This document shows, piece after piece, positions 12,915 to 20,000 of a DNA stretch of 20,000 nt (its first letter is position 1; every line of letters starts with the position of its first letter). The translations under genes and the position numbers were made by a program. The stretch lies in the IMG/VR virus record IMGVR_UViG_3300028228_000217; one strand, given 5' to 3'. Under the pieces are notes generated by a model. It was given only the letters and a program-made list of their open reading frames with translations, was not told where the DNA came from and ran no database searches. The DNA comes from an uncultured virus (IMG/VR IMGVR_UViG_3300028228_000217) (taxonomy: Duplodnaviria > Heunggongvirae > Uroviricota > Caudoviricetes).

Positions 12915-13868
12915 CTATTTAAATTTACAGTTAGCCATAATCTCCGTCAAACACGCAACCATATTAATCTCTTGGTCTGCCACGAAAGCAGACTTGTACT
13001 GATAACCAGCAATGATTAATATTGATTGTGGAATAGAAGAAGATTCTAAAGACTTATACATTAACTCGTAAACACTAGTAAACAATGATGACGGTTCTTT
13101 GTCAAGATTATTAATAACCCATTTACGCATGTCATTAAATCTTTTTTCTTTTAAGATTTTGACCAGTTCTTTTGTATTTGCCTCAGATAAACTAAACAAA
13201 ATACCACTATCGACTTTACCTCTTACAGAATATCTTTGAAGTTCATTGATAGTCCGTCTAAAGTCTGGATAATATTTCTGAATTAACTCAGCTAATACTT
13301 TGGTATCATATTCAATACCTTCTTCATCAAGGACTTTGCCTAGCCTTTGTAATAACGCCTGTGCTGTCTTTACTCTTTGACCATTTTTAATGGCAAAGTC
13401 TATAACGGTACATCTACTATGCAAAGCAGGTAAAATCTTATTCTTGTAATTACAAGTAAAGATAAATCTACAGTTTTTGTAAAATGTTTCAATGAAGTTT
13501 CTTAAAGCAGGTTGTACGGACTCGGCATTCATATAGTCTGCCTCGTCAATAATCACAACTTTATGATTTGAATGTTCAGTTAATGATACAGTAGAAGCAA
13601 AGTTCTTAATCTTGTTTCTTAATGTATCAATCTGACGGCCTTCATCTGAACCGTTTATGATGATGTAATCTGCACCAAGTTCCTCACACAATGCACGAGC
13701 AACAGTAGTCTTACCAGTACCAGCAGTACCAGCTAATAACAGATTAGGTATTTCTTTTTGTTTTAAAAATTGAGTAAATGTAGTTTTTAACTCTTCCGTT
13801 AAAATACAATCCTCAATACGCTTTGGCCTGTAAGCTTCCACCCAAAGGAAGTCTTTTGACTTTTCCAT
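12915..13868 (-). CDS. 44: Clamp loader large subunit (T4 gp44)
   Basis: LWVEAYRP, GTAGTGKT, IIDEAD, SRC motif, YPDFRR. Confidence 0.97.
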   Translation of the reverse strand: MEKSKDFLWVEAYRPKRIEDCILTEELKTTFTQFLKQKEIPNLLLAGTAGTGKTTVARALCEELGADYIIINGSDEGRQIDTLRNKIKNFASTVSLTEHSNHKVVIIDEADYMNAESVQPALRNFIETFYKNCRFIFTCNYKNKILPALHSRCTVIDFAIKNGQRVKTAQALLQRLGKVLDEEGIEYDTKVLAELIQKYYPDFRRTINELQRYSVRGKVDSGILFSLSEANTKELVKILKEKRFNDMRKWVINNLDKEPSSLFTSVYELMYKSLESSSIPQSILIIAGYQYKSAFVADQEINMVACLTEIMANCKFK

Positions 13869-14475
13869 TCTTCACCTCTTTCATTATTATATAATTTTTA
13901 ACACCAGTTTTTCTACTTGCCTCACTAATAGATGCATAGTTTTTACCTTTATATTTAATAGGAACAGCATTTGATGGAGTTTTCCCATACATACCATTCT
14001 TTTTACCTCGGACTTTATCGGAGATTGATTTGATTTCTGCTTCAGTATAATTGTTCCATCTTTCTTTAGTTAATTTAGAAAGAGTGGATTTTTGTTCTTC
14101 ACTTTGTTTCTTACCCAACATTCCGTATGTAGCATATGATTCTCTAGTTTTAGTTTTATGATATTTTTTCATACTTTTTATAAAATTAATACTATTACTT
14201 GTATCTCCACCATCATTACCATTAGTCATATTATAATGAGGTTTTAGTTTAGAAATAGTATCAACTTCTAACAATTTAGATTTACCTTCTTTTATTAATT
14301 CAACATAAAAATTATCTTTTCCATTTTTTCTCATAGCTCTGTATAGATGTGTTTTCATATTTAAATTAAATGCATTATATAAATGTCTAGCAAATCTTTC
14401 TTCTAAAGATTTGGAGGTATATCCTATATAAAATTTTTTATTTACTTTATTTGTAATCTTGTATATTTTTATCAT
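13813..14475 (-). mobile_element. Free-standing GIY-YIG (Seg-like) homing endonuclease with NUMOD-type DNA-binding tail
   Basis: MIKIYKITNKVNKKFYIGYT...ERFARH...E...HYN; GMLGKKQSEEQK and GKKNGMYGK (NUMOD3-like); YASISEASRKTG (NUMOD1/HTH-like). Likely start is ATG 14475, not 14562. Very AT-rich; overlaps the gene 44 start by 56 nt. Confidence 0.9.
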
Positions 14476-14480
14476 ACAAG

Positions 14481-14488
14481 TATTTATA
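14481..14488 (-). promoter_or_regulatory. T4-type late promoter of the homing endonuclease
   Basis: TATAAATA separated from the ATG at 14475 by 5 nt. Confidence 0.75.
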
Positions 14489-14512
14489 AGACAGTAATTC
14501 TCTAAAAACCCA

Positions 14513-14860
14513 TTATTTATTTTCAATTGTAAACTTGTCAACGATTTCAGCATCAACATCATAACCGCCTTTATTCATTGTCCAACAATCTTCTTCACGG
14601 TCATAATCGTGCTCTGATACAAATTCTTGGACTTTATCAGCCAACTCTTTATCTTCTTGTGAAGATTTGTGATAATCGTTGCAATCAAAGTAAAGACCTT
14701 TTTCAAAGGTAGGTAAATCACCAAACTCCTTTATAATATCAGAAACAGCAATTTGTCTGTTAAGATAGTGTGTTGTTTGATGATATTCTCTGGTTTCTAC
14801 TTTGATATAGTCGTCTGAATTGTATTCGGTACCATCTTCTAGCTTATATGTATCGGACAT
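14513..14860 (-). CDS. Acidic hypothetical protein (115 aa)
   Basis: Likely start MSDTYKLEDG at 14860, 1 nt after the gp45 stop; the upstream part of the ORF-track call overlaps gp45. Confidence 0.75.
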   Translation of the reverse strand: MSDTYKLEDGTEYNSDDYIKVETREYHQTTHYLNRQIAVSDIIKEFGDLPTFEKGLYFDCNDYHKSSQEDKELADKVQEFVSEHDYDREEDCWTMNKGGYDVDAEIVDKFTIENK

Positions 14861-15553: not shown

Positions 15554-15627
15554 TGGAGCGGAGTGATTGTACTGCCCAATCTTCTCTTGGTTGGAAACCA
15601 AGTGTGTTACTTTTATACTAACTCCGC
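15554..15627 (-). tRNA. tRNA-Gly(UCC) with non-canonical D and T loops, CCA encoded
   Basis: GCGGAGT TA GTAT AAAAGTA ACAC A CTTGG TTTCCAA CCAAG AGAA GATTG GGCAGTA CAATC ACTCCGC T CCA: perfect 7-bp acceptor, 5-bp anticodon and 5-bp T stems; U73. Confidence 0.92.
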
Positions 15628-15698: not shown

Positions 15699-16151
15699 TT
15701 ATTTAATGTTGATTGTTCTAGCCTTTCTATGGTCTGGAACAATTTTCTCTAAAGAAACTGTTAAAAGGCCGTCTTTAAGTTCAGCACCTTTAACCTCAAC
15801 ATCTTCAGCAATAGTAAATGATTTCATAAAGTTTCTTTTAGCAATGCCTTTGTGTAATACTCCGTCATTTTCTTCTACTTCTTTTTCGTCTTTACTTTTT
15901 ACTGATTCGATTTTTAGGATATTATCCTCATAACTGATTGATACATCTTTCTTATTGTATCCAGCTAATGCCACTTGAATATCATATGTTAAAGAACCTG
16001 TCTTTACGATATTGTATGGTGGATAATTGTTAGCCGTCATGTGTGGTAGATGGTCAACCATATGGTCGAAATGGTCGAACATGTCGTCAAACCCCACGGT
16101 AAACGGCCTTAGTCCAGTAAAAATTGATTGAATTGCTTTGTGATTTGTCAT
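15699..16151 (-). CDS. hsp20: Small heat shock protein (Hsp20, IbpA-like)
   Basis: RPFTVGFD, NYPPYNIVK, ALAGY, LHKGIAKRNF..SFTIA, GAELKDGLLTVSLEKIVP, INIK tail. Confidence 0.96.
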   Translation of the reverse strand: MTNHKAIQSIFTGLRPFTVGFDDMFDHFDHMVDHLPHMTANNYPPYNIVKTGSLTYDIQVALAGYNKKDVSISYEDNILKIESVKSKDEKEVEENDGVLHKGIAKRNFMKSFTIAEDVEVKGAELKDGLLTVSLEKIVPDHRKARTINIK

Positions 16152-16205
16152 TTTAATCTCCTTTGTTAAGCAAGTTAATGTTTGATACCTCTTATGAGCG
16201 TATCA
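16152..16205 (-). promoter_or_regulatory. ROSE-like RNA thermometer in the hsp20 leader
   Basis: 5' hairpin TGATACGCTC-ATAA-GAGGTATCA, then CTTGCTT-AACA-AAGGAG: U(U/C)GCU motif pairing with the SD with a bulged G. Confidence 0.65.
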
Positions 16206-16209
16206 TAGT

Positions 16210-16241
16210 TATTTATATGGGGATTAAAGTTCATATTTCAA
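16210..16241 (-). promoter_or_regulatory. Sigma32 (RpoH)-type promoter overlapping a T4 late promoter
   Basis: TTGAAA-13 nt-CCCCATAT, running directly into TATAAATA (16210-16217). Confidence 0.75.
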
Positions 16242-16261
16242 CCCCCATACAAAATTTTTAA

Positions 16262-17398
16262 TTAAATATTCTCTAGTTTATCCTCCGGGATAGCTTTGAA
16301 AATATCTTTTCGGCTAATTAGAACCTGTTTTCTATTCAGATTCTTCTTACTCCATCTATTGATATTTTTAATCAGTTCATAAACAGGTTTCATAACATCT
16401 TTATTTTTACCTGAATTAGGAAATATATCTGATTGTTCAAATTGACCTGACCACTCCATAAACCATCCTTCAAAGACTTCTTTATTAATTTTATTATCAA
16501 AATAGTGTCTGATAATTGTTAACACAGATAAAGCTCCTGTTAAGATTTCACTATCTGTTTGATATGCCTTTCTAAGCAAATTAACATTATCTTTTACTAT
16601 TTCATAATCAAACTCTTTGATAATAGCCATTAAAGATGATGGAGAAGATATTTTTTTCAAAACTTTACCGTTTTGTTTCACTTGATTTTTAATATTAAAT
16701 CCCATGTCAACTAAAACTCTCATTGTATTTTCATATTGAGGTTCGCCAGCTTGAGCACCTGAAACTAATCTATCTTCAGCACCTTGGTTTGTTCTTCTAT
16801 CACTATCTGTGTGATGAATAATAGCACCAAACTTTCTGATTTCATCTAAAGATGTTTCTTTACCTAAACAAACAACTCTAGCAAATACAGGTGCACCAAG
16901 TCCACTTACAATAATAGATTTTGCTGTACAATGATTACCAATCACGGTTACAAATTTATATGTTCCGTCTTTAGCATAATATACAACTACGGTAATATTC
17001 ATAGCTTGCCAAAATAAACCTTCTCTTAAATCTAAATGTGTAGATATATTTGTAAAATTGATATTGTCTCCTCTATTGTGAATGATATTGGTGTATATCA
17101 TATCATTAGGAATCCAAGCATAAGTATCAAAACTACGACCTTTTCTGATTTTCTGGTCAATTGTTTGAAAATCAACACCGTCAGGTTTAATACCTATTTC
17201 TTTCCATCCTCTATCAGATTTTAATTCTGATGGTGTGAATGGATATTTTTTTCTTGTGTTGAAATGTTTATCAACTTGTCCACTAATTGAAAACAAATGT
17301 TTGCTTTCTTCATAGGCATTTAGTGATTTTTTTAAGTCGATATTTTTTACTGCGTCAGGTAACTTGTAGTCACCTTTTCTTAGGTCTGATATATACAT
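16262..17398 (-). CDS. Hypothetical protein, probable divergent ParB/Srx-like (DUF6551-like) domain
   Basis: AWIP..IY.NIIHNR...VVVYYAKDGTYKFVTVIGNHC...HTDSDRRTNQGAEDRLVSGAQAGE parallels YQR...viDGQHR...N..r...drf.a...ag; strong SD AAGGAGG. Confidence 0.55.
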   Translation of the reverse strand: MYISDLRKGDYKLPDAVKNIDLKKSLNAYEESKHLFSISGQVDKHFNTRKKYPFTPSELKSDRGWKEIGIKPDGVDFQTIDQKIRKGRSFDTYAWIPNDMIYTNIIHNRGDNINFTNISTHLDLREGLFWQAMNITVVVYYAKDGTYKFVTVIGNHCTAKSIIVSGLGAPVFARVVCLGKETSLDEIRKFGAIIHHTDSDRRTNQGAEDRLVSGAQAGEPQYENTMRVLVDMGFNIKNQVKQNGKVLKKISSPSSLMAIIKEFDYEIVKDNVNLLRKAYQTDSEILTGALSVLTIIRHYFDNKINKEVFEGWFMEWSGQFEQSDIFPNSGKNKDVMKPVYELIKNINRWSKKNLNRKQVLISRKDIFKAIPEDKLENI

Positions 17399-17477
17399 AT
17401 CGTTTAGCCCTCCTTGGACTGTTTGGTTGCTTACTTAAAAAATTCTACTAGAATTTAATAAACAACCGGTTCATTGT

Positions 17478-17485
17478 TATTTATA
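17478..17485 (-). promoter_or_regulatory. T4-type late promoter upstream of the ParB-like gene
   Basis: Exact TATAAATA, intergenic, about 80 nt before ATG 17398. Confidence 0.65.
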
Positions 17486-17772
17486 CATTAACATTCACTA
17501 GGCTAAGGATCCCTACCAGTTCCCTAGTGAATATGTTAATGATTTAGGTTCACTCTCGCTCTCCTAAATTTTATTGGGCTGAGGCAGGTCAACAACCTCA
17601 TTATACTAACTTATCTAACTAAGCCTATGCATTATGCCTACGAAGACCAATGAGCCCGAATTTGGTGGTGGTTTTTGTGTCGTCAGACCACCAACTGCGG
17701 CTTGTAATTTATTGCTATGCAATGGGTCAAGCTACCCTCCACGCCCCAGGTCTTACGATTTGCCTGGTATCA
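17486..17772 (-). ncRNA. Candidate structured non-coding RNA (~290 nt)
   Basis: GC-enriched intergenic region with successive stems (CCAGG/CCTGG, GGGT/ACCC, TGGTGGT/ACCACCA, GGGCT/AGCCC, GAGG/CCTC, ATTTAGG/CCTAAAT, long terminal stem), preceded by late-promoter-like AATAAATA at 17774-17781. Confidence 0.6.
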
Positions 17773-17806
17773 CTATTTATTCATGTTATAAGCACAGGCG
17801 GGAATT

Positions 17807-18009
17807 CTATCTATCTTGTTCCAATTTTTTCTGGTTCTTTTTATAGTTTTTAATACCTTCTTTTTCTTTTCCCTTTTAATTTCAGATGGTTTTTGATAGT
17901 GTTGTCTAGCTCTTAACTCTTTTACTAGACCTTCTTTCATAACCTTCTTCTTTAAAACTCTCATAGCTTTTTCGAGGTTACCACCTCTAACTTCTACAGT
18001 TATACTCAT
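17807..18009 (-). CDS. rpsU: Ribosomal protein bS21 (67 aa after correcting an apparent 1-nt homopolymer deletion)
   Basis: MSITVEVRGGNLEKAMRVLKKKVMKEGLVKELRARQHYQKPSEIKR; adding one A at 17861-17865 gives ...KKKEGIKNYKKNQKKLEQDR* ending at 17807; SD GGAGG. Confidence 0.9.
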
Positions 18010-18038
18010 AAATTTATTACCTCCTCCCTTGATAGTGT

Positions 18039-18067
18039 AAAAAGGTGGAGGGCACTACCCCTCCACC
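18039..18067 (-). terminator. Rho-independent terminator after cobS
   Basis: GGTGGAGGG-GTAGTG-CCCTCCACC-TTTTT; an outer inverted repeat TAGTGTAA/TTACACTA flanks it. Confidence 0.8.
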
Positions 18068-18093
18068 AAGGACTTACACTATGTTTAATAGAT

Positions 18094-19314
18094 TTAGATG
18101 GCATCGCTGTCATCTGACTCACTATCATTGTCGTCCATTTGTGAAGTCATATCCGCTTGTCTAGCTTCTTCGCTTATCTGCTCAGCAGTAGCGCCAGCAT
18201 CCACTTTGGTATATAATTCCATAAATGAATTCTTTGTGTCATCATCAAATCTGTTAGTACAAACTTCAATAGCTTTGATTTTTTGACCAAAGATACTGTA
18301 TGCTTGAGTGATGTGAACCAATCTTCTAGTTGATATAATCTCGTCAACACCACCATCATAGTAGGTTTTTCTGATTACATCAGCCCATGTTACCAACTTC
18401 TTACAAAAATCTATATCATCTTTGCTTGTAGCCTTTAATGTAGAAACTAAAATCTTTTCTTCTACACTTGGTTTTGGATATTTCTGTTCAAAGGTAATTG
18501 GAAATCTTTCCAAGAAAGCCTCATTAAGAACATTAGTACCAATAAACTTACCGTCATCACTACCTTGACCTTTAGTATTGGCAGTAGCAACACAGTTGAA
18601 ACCATGAGCAGGTTTTACAAATCTGTTTATCTTCTTAACATAGACACCAGAGCCTTCTAAGATAGGTTGTAAACACATAATCTTATTAGACGCAAGGTCA
18701 ATTTCATCAAGTAGAAGCACAGCGCCTCTCTCCATGGCTTCGATTACAGGACCATTCTGCCAAACAGTTTGGCCATCTTTAAGTCTGTAACCACCAAGTA
18801 AATCATCTTCATCTGTTTCAATGGTAATGTTTACTCTAATTAATTCTCTCTTGTTTTCGGCACAAGCTTGGGTAACACCCATAGTCTTACCGTTACCTGA
18901 AAGACCTGTAATAAAAACAGGATAAAACATCTTGCTTTTGATAATGCTCTTAACATCTGGATAATTACCAAATGAAACGAACACAGGATCCTTTTCAGGA
19001 ACAATGTTGCCAGTTAATGATGAAACTACATACGCAGCTTCAGAAACAGTTTCAGTTTCAGGTGCTTTAGTAGTCAAAACTTTTTCAGTTTCACCTTTTG
19101 TTTCAGCCTTAATAGACGGAGTATAATCTCCCTCAGTAGGCAATTTGAACAATGATTTACCAATTTTGAAATCATTATTTTTAATTAGCCATTGTGGTGC
19201 ATACTTGCAACCAAAATTGGCATTAGCTTCTTTTAATTGAACTGTAGTCAATTCGTTTGAACCAAACTTTTTAATAGCAAAGTCAACGAACTCTTGTTGT
19301 TTAGTGTTTAGCAT
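18094..19314 (-). CDS. cobS: CobS-like / MoxR-family AAA+ ATPase (406 aa)
   Basis: GLSGNGKT, ETDEDDLLGG, LLLDEID, TANTKGQG, NEAFLERF, ISTRRL. Start at MLNTKQQ (19314) with SD AAGGA; the longer ORF-track start would span the promoter. Confidence 0.92.
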   Translation of the reverse strand: MLNTKQQEFVDFAIKKFGSNELTTVQLKEANANFGCKYAPQWLIKNNDFKIGKSLFKLPTEGDYTPSIKAETKGETEKVLTTKAPETETVSEAAYVVSSLTGNIVPEKDPVFVSFGNYPDVKSIIKSKMFYPVFITGLSGNGKTMGVTQACAENKRELIRVNITIETDEDDLLGGYRLKDGQTVWQNGPVIEAMERGAVLLLDEIDLASNKIMCLQPILEGSGVYVKKINRFVKPAHGFNCVATANTKGQGSDDGKFIGTNVLNEAFLERFPITFEQKYPKPSVEEKILVSTLKATSKDDIDFCKKLVTWADVIRKTYYDGGVDEIISTRRLVHITQAYSIFGQKIKAIEVCTNRFDDDTKNSFMELYTKVDAGATAEQISEEARQADMTSQMDDNDSESDDSDAI

Positions 19315-19350
19315 AGTGTTATTGTCCTTCTTCATTGTTAATATAGGTAT

Positions 19351-19380
19351 ATTATACAGGCCTTTTTGTAAAAGGCAAGC
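19351..19380 (-). promoter_or_regulatory. Sigma70-type promoter for cobS
   Basis: GC-TTGCCT-16 nt-TATAAT-ATACCTATATTAA; the spacer contains an A5 run that may be one base short. Confidence 0.7.
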
Positions 19381-19454
19381 GTTATATACGATTTTTTCAC
19401 TTTTTTCGTTACCAGGTAACGGTTTTCTAACATTCATTAAATTAATTGCCATTT

Positions 19455-20000
19455 TTATGCAACCTCTTTAATAAATTTGTTTAAAACTACTCTGGAAACC
19501 AATCGATTCGCCATTGATTTACCAAAGATTCTTTTTAACTCAGAGGCTGTGCCTTTTTTAACTTCAGCACCTTGCATATCAAAGTTTTCAACAGCAAGTT
19601 TTTTACCATCTAAGATAAAGAATTTATTATAACCATTGGCGTCTACAGCCAAGGCTTTATCTCTAGTAAAGTCTTTTCTCATTTTATTATATTGATTTTG
19701 CTTATCATTATAATCTTTGTAGTCATTGATATATTTTTCAATATTCCATCTTTTAACTCTTTTGATTATGTAGAAACCAATAATGTTAACATCATATGTT
19801 TTACCAATATGAGATAATAATTTTTCTGTAGTATCATGGTAACCACCAACAAATTTTGATTTGCCAATTTGATAAACATTCTCTTTACCATACTCTTCAT
19901 CTGACCAACTACCAATAGTTTGACCAACAAGTTTACCTCTTGGACAGTTACCTGCTCCGTCAGTAAGAGTAATAAATGTCATCTTCTCAATACCATATTT
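19455..20000 (-). CDS. C-terminal part of a VWA-domain (CobT-like) partner of the CobS-like ATPase; 5' end outside the window
   Basis: Frame open to the window edge (KYGIEKMTFITLTDGAGN); hhhhTDG VWA motif, VNIIGFYI; adjacent to a MoxR-type ATPase. Confidence 0.75.
   Translation of the reverse strand, partial: KYGIEKMTFITLTDGAGNCPRGKLVGQTIGSWSDEEYGKENVYQIGKSKFVGGYHDTTEKLLSHIGKTYDVNIIGFYIIKRVKRWNIEKYINDYKDYNDKQNQYNKMRKDFTRDKALAVDANGYNKFFILDGKKLAVENFDMQGAEVKKGTASELKRIFGKSMANRLVSRVVLNKFIKEVA

Follow-up and report, generated by a model that had tools for sequence, protein, structure and literature searches.

Structured elements within their own mRNAs are common binding sites of ribosomal proteins. 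For bS21, we know of no such operator. According to the accessible parts of two studies, bS21 is the ribosomal protein found most commonly in phage genomes (PMC6375957, PMC7029224), and the pelagiphage protein is incorporated into ribosomes in Escherichia coli (PMC6375957). The same portions of both papers describe pelagimyophages as infecting SAR11, which is among the most abundant bacteria of the ocean (PMC6375957, PMC7029224). In the available text of PMC7029224, S21 is reported not to lie in any gene cluster and it is suggested that no other viral factor is needed; SAR11 is said there to depend heavily on riboswitches, and a riboswitch scanner is reported to have detected none in these phages. 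The reason why phages carry a bS21 gene is an open question. Here, we analysed a stretch of 20,000 nt from an uncultured virus of the Caudoviricetes (IMG/VR record IMGVR_UViG_3300028228_000217; the whole stretch is called the window below), in which a structured RNA directly follows the bS21 gene and offers a testable link.

The comparative data make it well supported that this RNA represents a modular, pseudoknot-rich family in the bS21 transcription unit of T4-like SAR11 phages (pelagimyophages, which are abundant in the sea). The family is undescribed as far as we can tell. In the window it occupies the minus (gene-sense) strand from 17804 to 17486, about 320 nt, and folds into at least 14 helices with three pseudoknots among them. 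An earlier note made from the letters alone had proposed a large structured non-coding RNA with at least seven stems on the gene strand, and covariation in relatives bears this out. The note let the RNA begin around the AAUAAAUA box (17781-17774); this box indeed lies just 5' of the first hairpin, but the RNA starts further upstream, at about 17804, with the helix P0.

Comparative evidence for the fold

Relatives were collected by a bS21-based scan of IMG/VR (121 confirmed, 80 loci kept), and the region 3' of bS21 was alignable in most of them at 68-98% identity. The nearest relatives with a name are two T4-like phages of Pelagibacter, Mosig EXVC030M and HTVC008M, the former with 84% identity across the first 259 nt of the RNA stretch. 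As the earlier note had described, the stretch is GC-enriched (0.41 at 17450-17749 vs about 0.30-0.32 in the flanking genes) and holds no long conserved open reading frame (ORF). A conserved reading frame of any kind was not found over it in 29 relatives, where 37 of the 47 distinct gap runs have a length that is not divisible by three. Two hypothetical coding sequences (CDS) of 39 aa annotated there in Mosig are open in 3/29 and 6/29 relatives, and small protein-coding ORFs were rejected because the frames are not conserved.

For the 5' half of the RNA we built a covariance model, R1, from 8 close sequences and a hand-drawn structure. In an alignment of 52 distinct sequences, which was fitted to R1 and is thus biased towards it, 94.7% of the cells were paired vs 74.9% in column shuffles, both-sided changes occurred in 22 of the 29 nested pairs, and none of 500 shuffles matched any of these measures. 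Sliding the 3' partners by 1-3 columns brought pairing down to 32-46%. A MAFFT alignment of 29 full-length window-type sequences gave 94.7% paired cells vs 87.0% in shuffles, with compensatory changes in 19 of 46 pairs (0/500 shuffles as good; slid controls 35-50%). Unaided, RNAalifold returned 37 pairs, 16 of them compensatory. G-U pairs are common in the fold (for example UG:12, GU:13), which indicates that it belongs to the gene-sense strand only.

Architecture of the RNA

The coordinates of all elements are given in Table 1. In 36 of 38 clade representatives, the 5' strand of P0 starts 1-11 nt past the stop codon of bS21, and in one it starts at 19 nt. Six of its eight pairs show compensatory changes in relatives, and the helix is also recovered by single-sequence folding. 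As the length of P1 varies, the 3' strand of P0 falls out of register in the MAFFT alignment over all clades; that alignment was set aside for P0-P1 and replaced by a per-sequence helix search, in which the mean score was 16.7 for the own partner and 13.1 for non-cognate ones (a crude, ungapped measure). The letters of P0 differ by clade while pairing is kept, as in UUCCAUGCC/GGCGUGGAG, UCUAUGCC/GGUAUAGA, UUUUACAC/GUGUAAAA, UUUAACGCU/AGCGUUAAA and UUUUGCG/CGCAGAA. The adjoining P1 hairpin is 100% paired in the 29 sequences, with 3/5 pairs compensatory, and 97.3% paired in the 52 sequences.

Two pseudoknots follow. Stem S2 of PK0 carries compensatory changes in all five pairs; S1 is 73-84% paired with GC<->AU changes in an alignment not fitted to it, and is seen in clade comparison as well. 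In the H-type pseudoknot PK1, S2 is 98.3% paired with 5/6 pairs compensatory, and loop 3 is A-rich (ACACAAAA). S1 of PK1 is less clean at 75% paired, like S1 of PK0, both stems standing outside the covariance model; a helix of at least 4 bp is nonetheless present at its place in 35 of 49 distinct sequences, in widely differing letters (GCAG/CUGC, UAGAG/CUCUA, GGUAG/CUACC, GUAGUAG/CUACUAU).

The central domain contains the third pseudoknot. In the MAFFT alignment, helix a is 100% paired (2/4 pairs compensatory), helix b 97.9% (1/5) and hairpin c 100% (2/5), and an inner hairpin is compensatory in 4/4 pairs, the alignment not being fitted to the structure. Within the knot itself, a single pair is compensated, changing from U-A to C-G in 2 sequences. 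Junction nucleotides UCAUUGGUCUU and GUUAGUAUAAUGAGG are invariant, and the peripheral hairpins vary.

Four complementarities outside the stems had been put forward in the earlier note as pseudoknots or alternative folds. One of them, GCUUG/CAAGC, is S2 of PK0. The other three did not hold: in AAGACC/GGUCUU, 5/6 pairs are constant and the sixth, which does vary, is disrupted in 7/29 sequences without compensation, GGUCU pairing instead with AGACC in the loop of hairpin c; UGACGAC/GUUGUUG is 68.8% paired, with mostly gaps; and UACCAG/CUGGUA cannot be conserved, since the hairpin top never varies and the P1 strand differs between clades.

An invariant hairpin top

The RNA ends in the long hairpin G, at 17541-17486, whose stem of about 17 bp had been recognised before. 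Its folding energy is -21.6 kcal/mol (z = -4.1; 0/200 shuffles as good). In the outer stem the letters vary and pairing is kept. The 34-nt top is letter-identical (allowing for one Y) in 56 IMG/VR stretches, with a single occurrence on each contig. In 48 of the 56 it is preceded by bS21, at 42-100% identity to the bS21 of the window, and 7 of the other 8 have at most 300 nt of upstream sequence. A 20-nt core of the top was found in 75 metagenome stretches, again one per contig, with the full 34 nt in 75/75; bS21 is present in 66 of the 68 with enough upstream sequence. Copies of the hairpin top in any other context were not found in the IMG/VR and metagenome stretches.

That the top is invariant despite widely diverged phage proteins argues for sequence-specific recognition by something conserved. 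Judged from these sequences, a conserved host partner would fit better than a variable phage protein alone.

Local alignment was also used to compare hairpin G with the 16S rRNA of E. coli (rrsH, as a stand-in for the host). In sense orientation 234/300 shuffles scored as well and in antisense orientation 19/300, and a role of the hairpin as 16S rRNA mimic or antisense was dropped as unsupported.

Table 1. Features of the RNA and its surroundings in the window
Feature	Position	Strand	Remarks
P0, 5' strand UUCCCGCC	17797-17804	-	pairs with 17745-17737; inside the last codons of the window bS21 ORF
AU box AAUAAAUA	17774-17781	-	in the 29-nt AU-rich loop between P0 and P1; late-promoter-like
P1 hairpin	17746-17767	-	CCAGG/CCUGG; 2-bp top UC/GA closing a GUAA loop; CAAA bulge
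P0, 3' strand GGCGUGGAG	17737-17745	-	abuts P1 directly
Pseudoknot PK0	17700-17737	-	S1 GGGU (17737-17734)/ACCC (17727-17724); S2 GCUUG (17732-17728)/CAAGC (17704-17700)
Hairpin inserted in PK0	17723-17711	-	AUUGC-AUA-GCAAU; 3/3 pairs compensatory
H-type pseudoknot PK1	17667-17699	-	S1 CGCAG (17699-17695)/CUG-A-CG (17686-17681); S2 GGUGGU (17692-17687)/ACCACC (17672-17667)
Central domain	17576-17657	-	closed by helix a GGGC/GCCC; hairpin c UGAGG/CCUCA
Helix b of central domain, GGUCU	17648-17644	-	pairs into the loop of hairpin c (17591-17587); third pseudoknot
Two inner hairpins of central domain	17640-17626, 17623-17610	-	
Hairpin D	17542-17569	-	AUUUAGG/CCUAAAU, inner GC-GAGA-GU top; 3/7 pairs compensatory; clade variants exist
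Terminal long hairpin G	17486-17541	-	stem of ~17 bp; top 34 nt (17529-17496) invariant among relatives
TATAAATA box	17478-17485	-	directly 3' of hairpin G; assigned from sequence and the T4-type consensus
Peptidase-like fragment	19455-19982	-	PHROG 459
AAA/CobS-like ATPase	18094-19452	-	Pfam AAA_5
Intrinsic terminator	18067-18044	-	between the CobS-like gene and bS21; terminator scan
Phage bS21 gene, 78 aa	17773-18009	-	Pfam Ribosomal_S21, E = 1.2e-14; upstream partner of the RNA
378-aa ORF	17398-16262	-	PHROG 15918 'unknown'; no Pfam match at E up to 0.01
hsp20	16151-15699	-	followed by a gp45-type sliding clamp gene

Linkage to bS21 and variation between clades

All genes around the RNA, from 19982 to hsp20 and the sliding clamp, lie on the minus strand. 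R1 matches 78 of 82 sources (the window and 77 of 81 loci), once each, on the gene strand and behind bS21, and the RNA stands directly 3' of the gene in 76 of 77 loci, so that a tight linkage to bS21 is supported. The nearest record (G001, a 27.8-kb fragment) has a single copy. A bS21-based scan of genome contigs for a host origin gave 22 loci, 0 of them from SAR11.

The bS21 ORF of the window is about 12 codons longer than in most relatives (17773-17811, minus strand), and L003 and L004 are alike in this. The usual stop before P0 is out of frame in the window, and translation is thereby carried through the 5' strand of P0 to the UAG (17775-17773), which overlaps the AU box.

Gene order differs between the window (bS21-RNA-ORF-hsp20) and HTVC008M (bS21-ORF-RNA-hsp20), where R1 matches with 23.4 bits (E = 1.3e-5) and the intervening ORF encodes 111 aa (PHROG 4973, unknown). 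The RNA thus persists when a gene is inserted on either side of it, which speaks for the autonomy of the unit. In HTVC008M, a tRNA lies immediately upstream of bS21 (L162, 2413-2483). The 378-aa ORF of the window follows the RNA in 5/77 loci and looks like an inserted cassette. It has neither a Pfam match nor a PHROG of known function, and hsp20 is the next gene after the RNA in 59 of the 72 loci with hsp20 downstream; the link with a downstream 'ParB-like' protein that had been considered was rejected.

Clades differ in the modules they contain, and the RNA accordingly measures between about 150 and 426 nt. The smallest versions, of about 150-220 nt, consist of P0, P1, one hairpin and one H-type pseudoknot, often with hairpin G. 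In larger versions these are joined by PK0, hairpin D, the central domain, another domain and a second pseudoknot. Many clades lack the central domain and retain the rest. A motif scan for it gave 80 pattern matches, 44 of which were chance matches without the 3' partner; the 36 true instances occur only behind bS21 (33 of the 34 that could be tested). The long forms (L005, L008, L016 and others) carry, at a distance of about 260-400 nt from bS21 on its 3' side, one more conserved domain together with a second pseudoknot of the H-type, for example GGCU...GGUAGUUUUUU...AGCC...AAAAAACUACC, whose stems covary between clades. The window is without these parts, and hairpin D joins hairpin G directly.

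Promoter boxes, terminators and transcripts

Late promoters of the T4 type read TATAAATA. In 40/40 clade representatives, NATAAATA (TATATATA in some clades) lies about 5-6 nt (0-7 across clades) 5' of P1. The resemblance of this box to a late promoter makes a shorter late transcript from P1, or cleavage in the loop, plausible. Late expression had been suggested in the earlier note, and with this box a late-promoter-like signal is present. The TATAAATA box behind hairpin G is likely the late promoter of the next gene, as its sequence suggests, and would accordingly mark the 3' limit of the RNA unit. ATAAATA occurs 8 times in the window, always on the coding strand (expected 13.8 +/- 3.5 on both strands), and most copies precede a gene start by no more than about 100 nt; this fits selection against stray late promoters.

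A terminator scan of 16100-18200 found terminator-like sites at 18044-18067 only, upstream of bS21. As no G+C-rich stem-loop with a U tract was detected in or after the RNA, its identity as an intrinsic terminator was rejected. The terminator upstream of bS21 lies within a longer helix (18031-18085; AUAGUGUAA / UUACACUAU), and its stem covaries in relatives (GGUGGAGGG/CCCUCCACC vs GGGGUCGG/CCGACCCC). Its 5' flank and stem weakly resemble the letters of P1-3', P0-3' and PK0, a likeness reached by 69/1000 shuffles in the window and by 0/300 in L002, absent in L016 and L017, and hence ambiguous.

Contigs from RNA libraries (4 metatranscriptome runs from 3 studies) cover the RNA together with bS21; one of them, X1 (764 nt, 17473-18102), spans both. 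In X5 and X9, bins inside the RNA are without cover. These contigs were available in assembled form only and show neither a discrete transcript nor its ends, level, strand or timing, and their cover is compatible with co-transcription of bS21 and the RNA, no more. In run X5, a single 95-nt contig ends at 17733, just 3' of P0, and is joined to adapter-like letters; this is possibly a fragment or cleavage end.

Downstream of the RNA, hsp20 has a leader with promoter boxes of its own. The leader (16146-16217, minus strand) starts at 16217, 5 nt after a TATAAATA box, and the C-AUAA-G top of its first hairpin, GAUACG-CUC-AUAA-GAG-GUAUC, resembles the top of P1. It matches ROSE_3 weakly, with 22.7 bits vs a gathering score of 43 (16146-16207), and with 27-30 bits in three relatives, which makes it a candidate phage-borne thermometer for the small heat-shock gene on sequence grounds. 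A ROSE thermometer was rejected as the identity of the RNA itself, as no ROSE match lies in it and the weak ROSE_3 matches are confined to this separate leader.

Other observations around hsp20 and further downstream were made in passing. A tRNA-like element at 15557-15627 (minus strand), between the sliding-clamp gene and hsp20, matches the Rfam tRNA model (42.6 bits, E = 3.5e-6); it has no ARAGORN call and its T arm looks atypical. The ORF at 13813-14562 (minus strand) has a GIY-YIG nuclease domain (E = 2e-6) and probably encodes a homing endonuclease. Its 5' end as predicted contains two ATAAATA boxes, and the true start may be further downstream. In L021, a glutamine riboswitch (67 bits) is found at 1398-1448, downstream of hsp20.

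Search for known families

The Rfam search proposed in the earlier note returned no family for the RNA. With the 4227 models of Rfam 15, the whole window at gathering thresholds gave the tRNA-like match elsewhere and none in the RNA, the region 17350-17900 at E up to 10 gave two chance-level matches (E = 1.2 and 5.9), and 14 homologous loci at E up to 1 gave no match inside the RNA. ARAGORN called 0 tRNA or tmRNA genes in the window. Thus, tRNA and tmRNA were ruled out, and group I intron and RNase P RNA had no Rfam match at E up to 10, in line with what had been noticed from the letters. Promoter-stem-loop cassettes of T4-type phages are present in many near-identical copies per genome and flank mobile gene cassettes. 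Such a shuffling cassette was dismissed here, as hairpin G occurs once per contig in 56/56 viral and 75/75 metagenomic stretches; R1, too, matches once in the 20-kb window. The position is not that of the usual ribosomal-protein operators, the element lying 3' of the stop codon and not in a 5' leader or at a ribosome-binding site.

An RNA behind bS21 is not mentioned in the accessible parts of PMC7029224, PMC9723584, PMC6375957, PMC12753301, PMC10690425, PMC5737381, PMC2704228 and bioRxiv 10.64898/2026.10.21.760802. 'S21' is absent from the searchable supplements of PMC10690425, which represent a part only, and the RNA may be among the roughly 10,000 unnamed candidates of that study.

Discussion

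We tentatively favour, at a probability of about 0.4, a stable RNA that derives from a 3' extension of the bS21 mRNA and engages bS21 or the host small ribosomal subunit. Since the AU box comes after the 5' strand of P0, the geometry implies that at least one form of the RNA would be transcribed with bS21 and would thus represent a 3' extension of its mRNA. By the same geometry, a ribosome terminating on bS21 would have to melt P0. The AU box may in addition give rise to a shorter late RNA that begins at P1, or indicate where cleavage releases the RNA. The RNA might then bind freshly synthesised bS21 and serve as a partner encoded in cis, as a buffer or as a feedback decoy; alternatively, it may dock on the host small subunit, with the invariant hairpin top as the putative contact for a conserved host component. 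The complexity of the RNA, with three pseudoknots and many invariant junction letters, speaks for such a role.

Several observations weigh against it. Known ribosomal-protein operators sit in 5' leaders and not 3' of the gene. The RNA has no match to the Rfam models of the small subunit (SSU) rRNA, and 234/300 shuffles of hairpin G score as well against E. coli 16S in sense orientation. HTVC008M and L077 have an inserted gene separating bS21 from the RNA, lack P0 and show P1 extended to 11 bp, so that adjacency to bS21 is not essential, and hsp20 is nearly as constant a neighbour as bS21. The RNA-library contigs cover the flanking genes too, and DNA carry-over is possible. Finally, the folding energy of the whole region is ordinary (z = -1.8 on either strand); it is uninformative, and the case therefore rests on the comparative evidence from covariation.

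The RNA could also be an element of mRNA architecture without a role in trans: stable helices and pseudoknots with A-rich loops that shield the bS21 message from 3'-to-5' exonucleases, a processing site in the AU loop between P0 and P1, and an insulator of bS21 transcripts from the promoters of the next gene. Its position exactly at the 3' end of bS21 suits this, as do the terminator upstream of bS21 with none between bS21 and the next gene, the promoter-like boxes immediately after the unit, the clade-variable modules, which would be expected where loss of parts is tolerated, and the single contig end at 17733. Stabilisers, however, seldom require invariant loop and junction letters or an identical 34-nt top at 42% protein identity, three pseudoknots and a conserved central domain exceed the needs of a 3' block, and in HTVC008M the RNA is retained away from the 3' end of bS21. 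On balance we regard a purely architectural role as somewhat unlikely, though as the leading alternative.

A bolder version of the favoured bS21 or ribosome partnership, in which the phage encodes a ribonucleoprotein for ribosome takeover, composed of bS21 and a dedicated structured RNA from the same transcript, is clearly a long shot. The RNA would capture nascent bS21 as the ribosome terminates into P0 and deliver or tether it to the host 30S subunit through the invariant hairpin, or else it might mimic a ribosomal or mRNA site to reprogram initiation. If true, a viral ribosomal protein would for the first time be seen to have an RNA cofactor.

The nested pseudoknots, the invariant central junctions and the variable peripheral hairpins would also be in keeping with a ligand sensor or self-cleaving ribozyme whose output is read-through or processing of the bS21-hsp20 region, and the reliance of SAR11 on riboswitches, as stated in the available part of PMC7029224, points the same way. 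Yet the riboswitch and ribozyme models of Rfam give no match even at E up to 10, the central domain is absent in many clades, an expression platform (a terminator or a sequestered ribosome-binding site) is not apparent, and promoters lie between the RNA and the next gene, which leaves this proposal improbable.

ROSE-type thermometers control small heat-shock genes, and of the 77 loci, 72 have hsp20 downstream of the RNA, 59 of them as the next gene and 13, among them the window, with one gene in between. The arrangement of a late box, 5 nt and a C-AUAA-G-topped hairpin is common to P1 and the hsp20 leader. That the whole RNA belongs to hsp20, as its long 5' leader or as a regulatory region such as an extended thermometer, is even so very improbable: hsp20 has promoter boxes of its own and its own weakly ROSE_3-like leader (22.7-30.3 bits), another gene intervenes in those 13 of 72 loci, and P0 ties the RNA to the stop codon of bS21. 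The view that there is no RNA at all, and that the stretch holds either the small coding genes of the Mosig annotation or a site acting at the level of DNA, such as a palindrome bound by a protein (the invariant hairpin top being an inverted repeat in DNA as well), is largely refuted by the poorly conserved and frame-broken reading frames and by compensatory changes and G-U pairs that mark folding of the sense-strand RNA.

A conserved, pseudoknot-rich RNA at the bS21 stop codon contradicts the picture of an S21 that stands alone, as it is drawn in the accessible text of PMC7029224. Regardless of function, the RNA is a well-supported candidate for a new family with hundreds of natural variants, suits structural study, and corrects the annotation of genomes in which spurious small CDS were called over it. 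Mosig and HTVC008M are cultured systems that bear it.

Comparison with known systems

Among described elements, the RNA is most like the ribosomal-protein operators or the pseudoknot arrays at 3' ends, and in the tests run it shares the defining features of neither. The operators of S15 (a pseudoknot), S4, S8 and L20 are likewise structured, often pseudoknotted RNAs tied to a ribosomal-protein gene, and a common logic, in which the protein binds an element on its own message, is plausible, if conjectural here. These operators lie in the 5' leader or at the ribosome-binding site and mimic an rRNA site, whereas the bS21 RNA lies 3' of the stop codon, is 5-10 times larger and has no detected likeness to 16S rRNA, as judged from hairpin G against E. 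coli 16S and from the Rfam SSU models.

tmRNA and the upstream pseudoknot domains arrayed in the 3' untranslated regions of plant viruses contain consecutive H-type pseudoknots with a short loop 1 and an A-rich loop 3, as the bS21 RNA does; pseudoknot arrays and the bS21 RNA are both 3'-terminal on the message, with a number of modules that varies by lineage. Unlike these arrays, the bS21 RNA has no tRNA-like domain and no tag frame, and it differs in its hosts and in having bS21 as partner. The T4 gene 32 pseudoknot is also of the H-type, belongs to a T4-like phage, lies beside an AU-rich single-stranded tract and is tied to control of the message of an RNA-binding protein by that protein. 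It is one small knot at the 5' end of a leader, whereas the RNA described here has several knots 3' of the gene and extra domains, and no cooperative binding logic like that of gp32 is evident in it.

With ROSE thermometers, the neighbouring hsp20 leader shows a weak likeness, and its first hairpin in turn resembles the top of P1; the bS21 RNA itself is located 5' of the hsp20 promoters and masks no ribosome-binding site. GOLLD and ROOL differ from it in being larger than its roughly 190-400 nt, in having Rfam models that do not match it, and in lying by tRNA clusters rather than between bS21 and hsp20. Like them, the bS21 RNA is a big, intricate phage RNA of unknown function that was found by comparative analysis.

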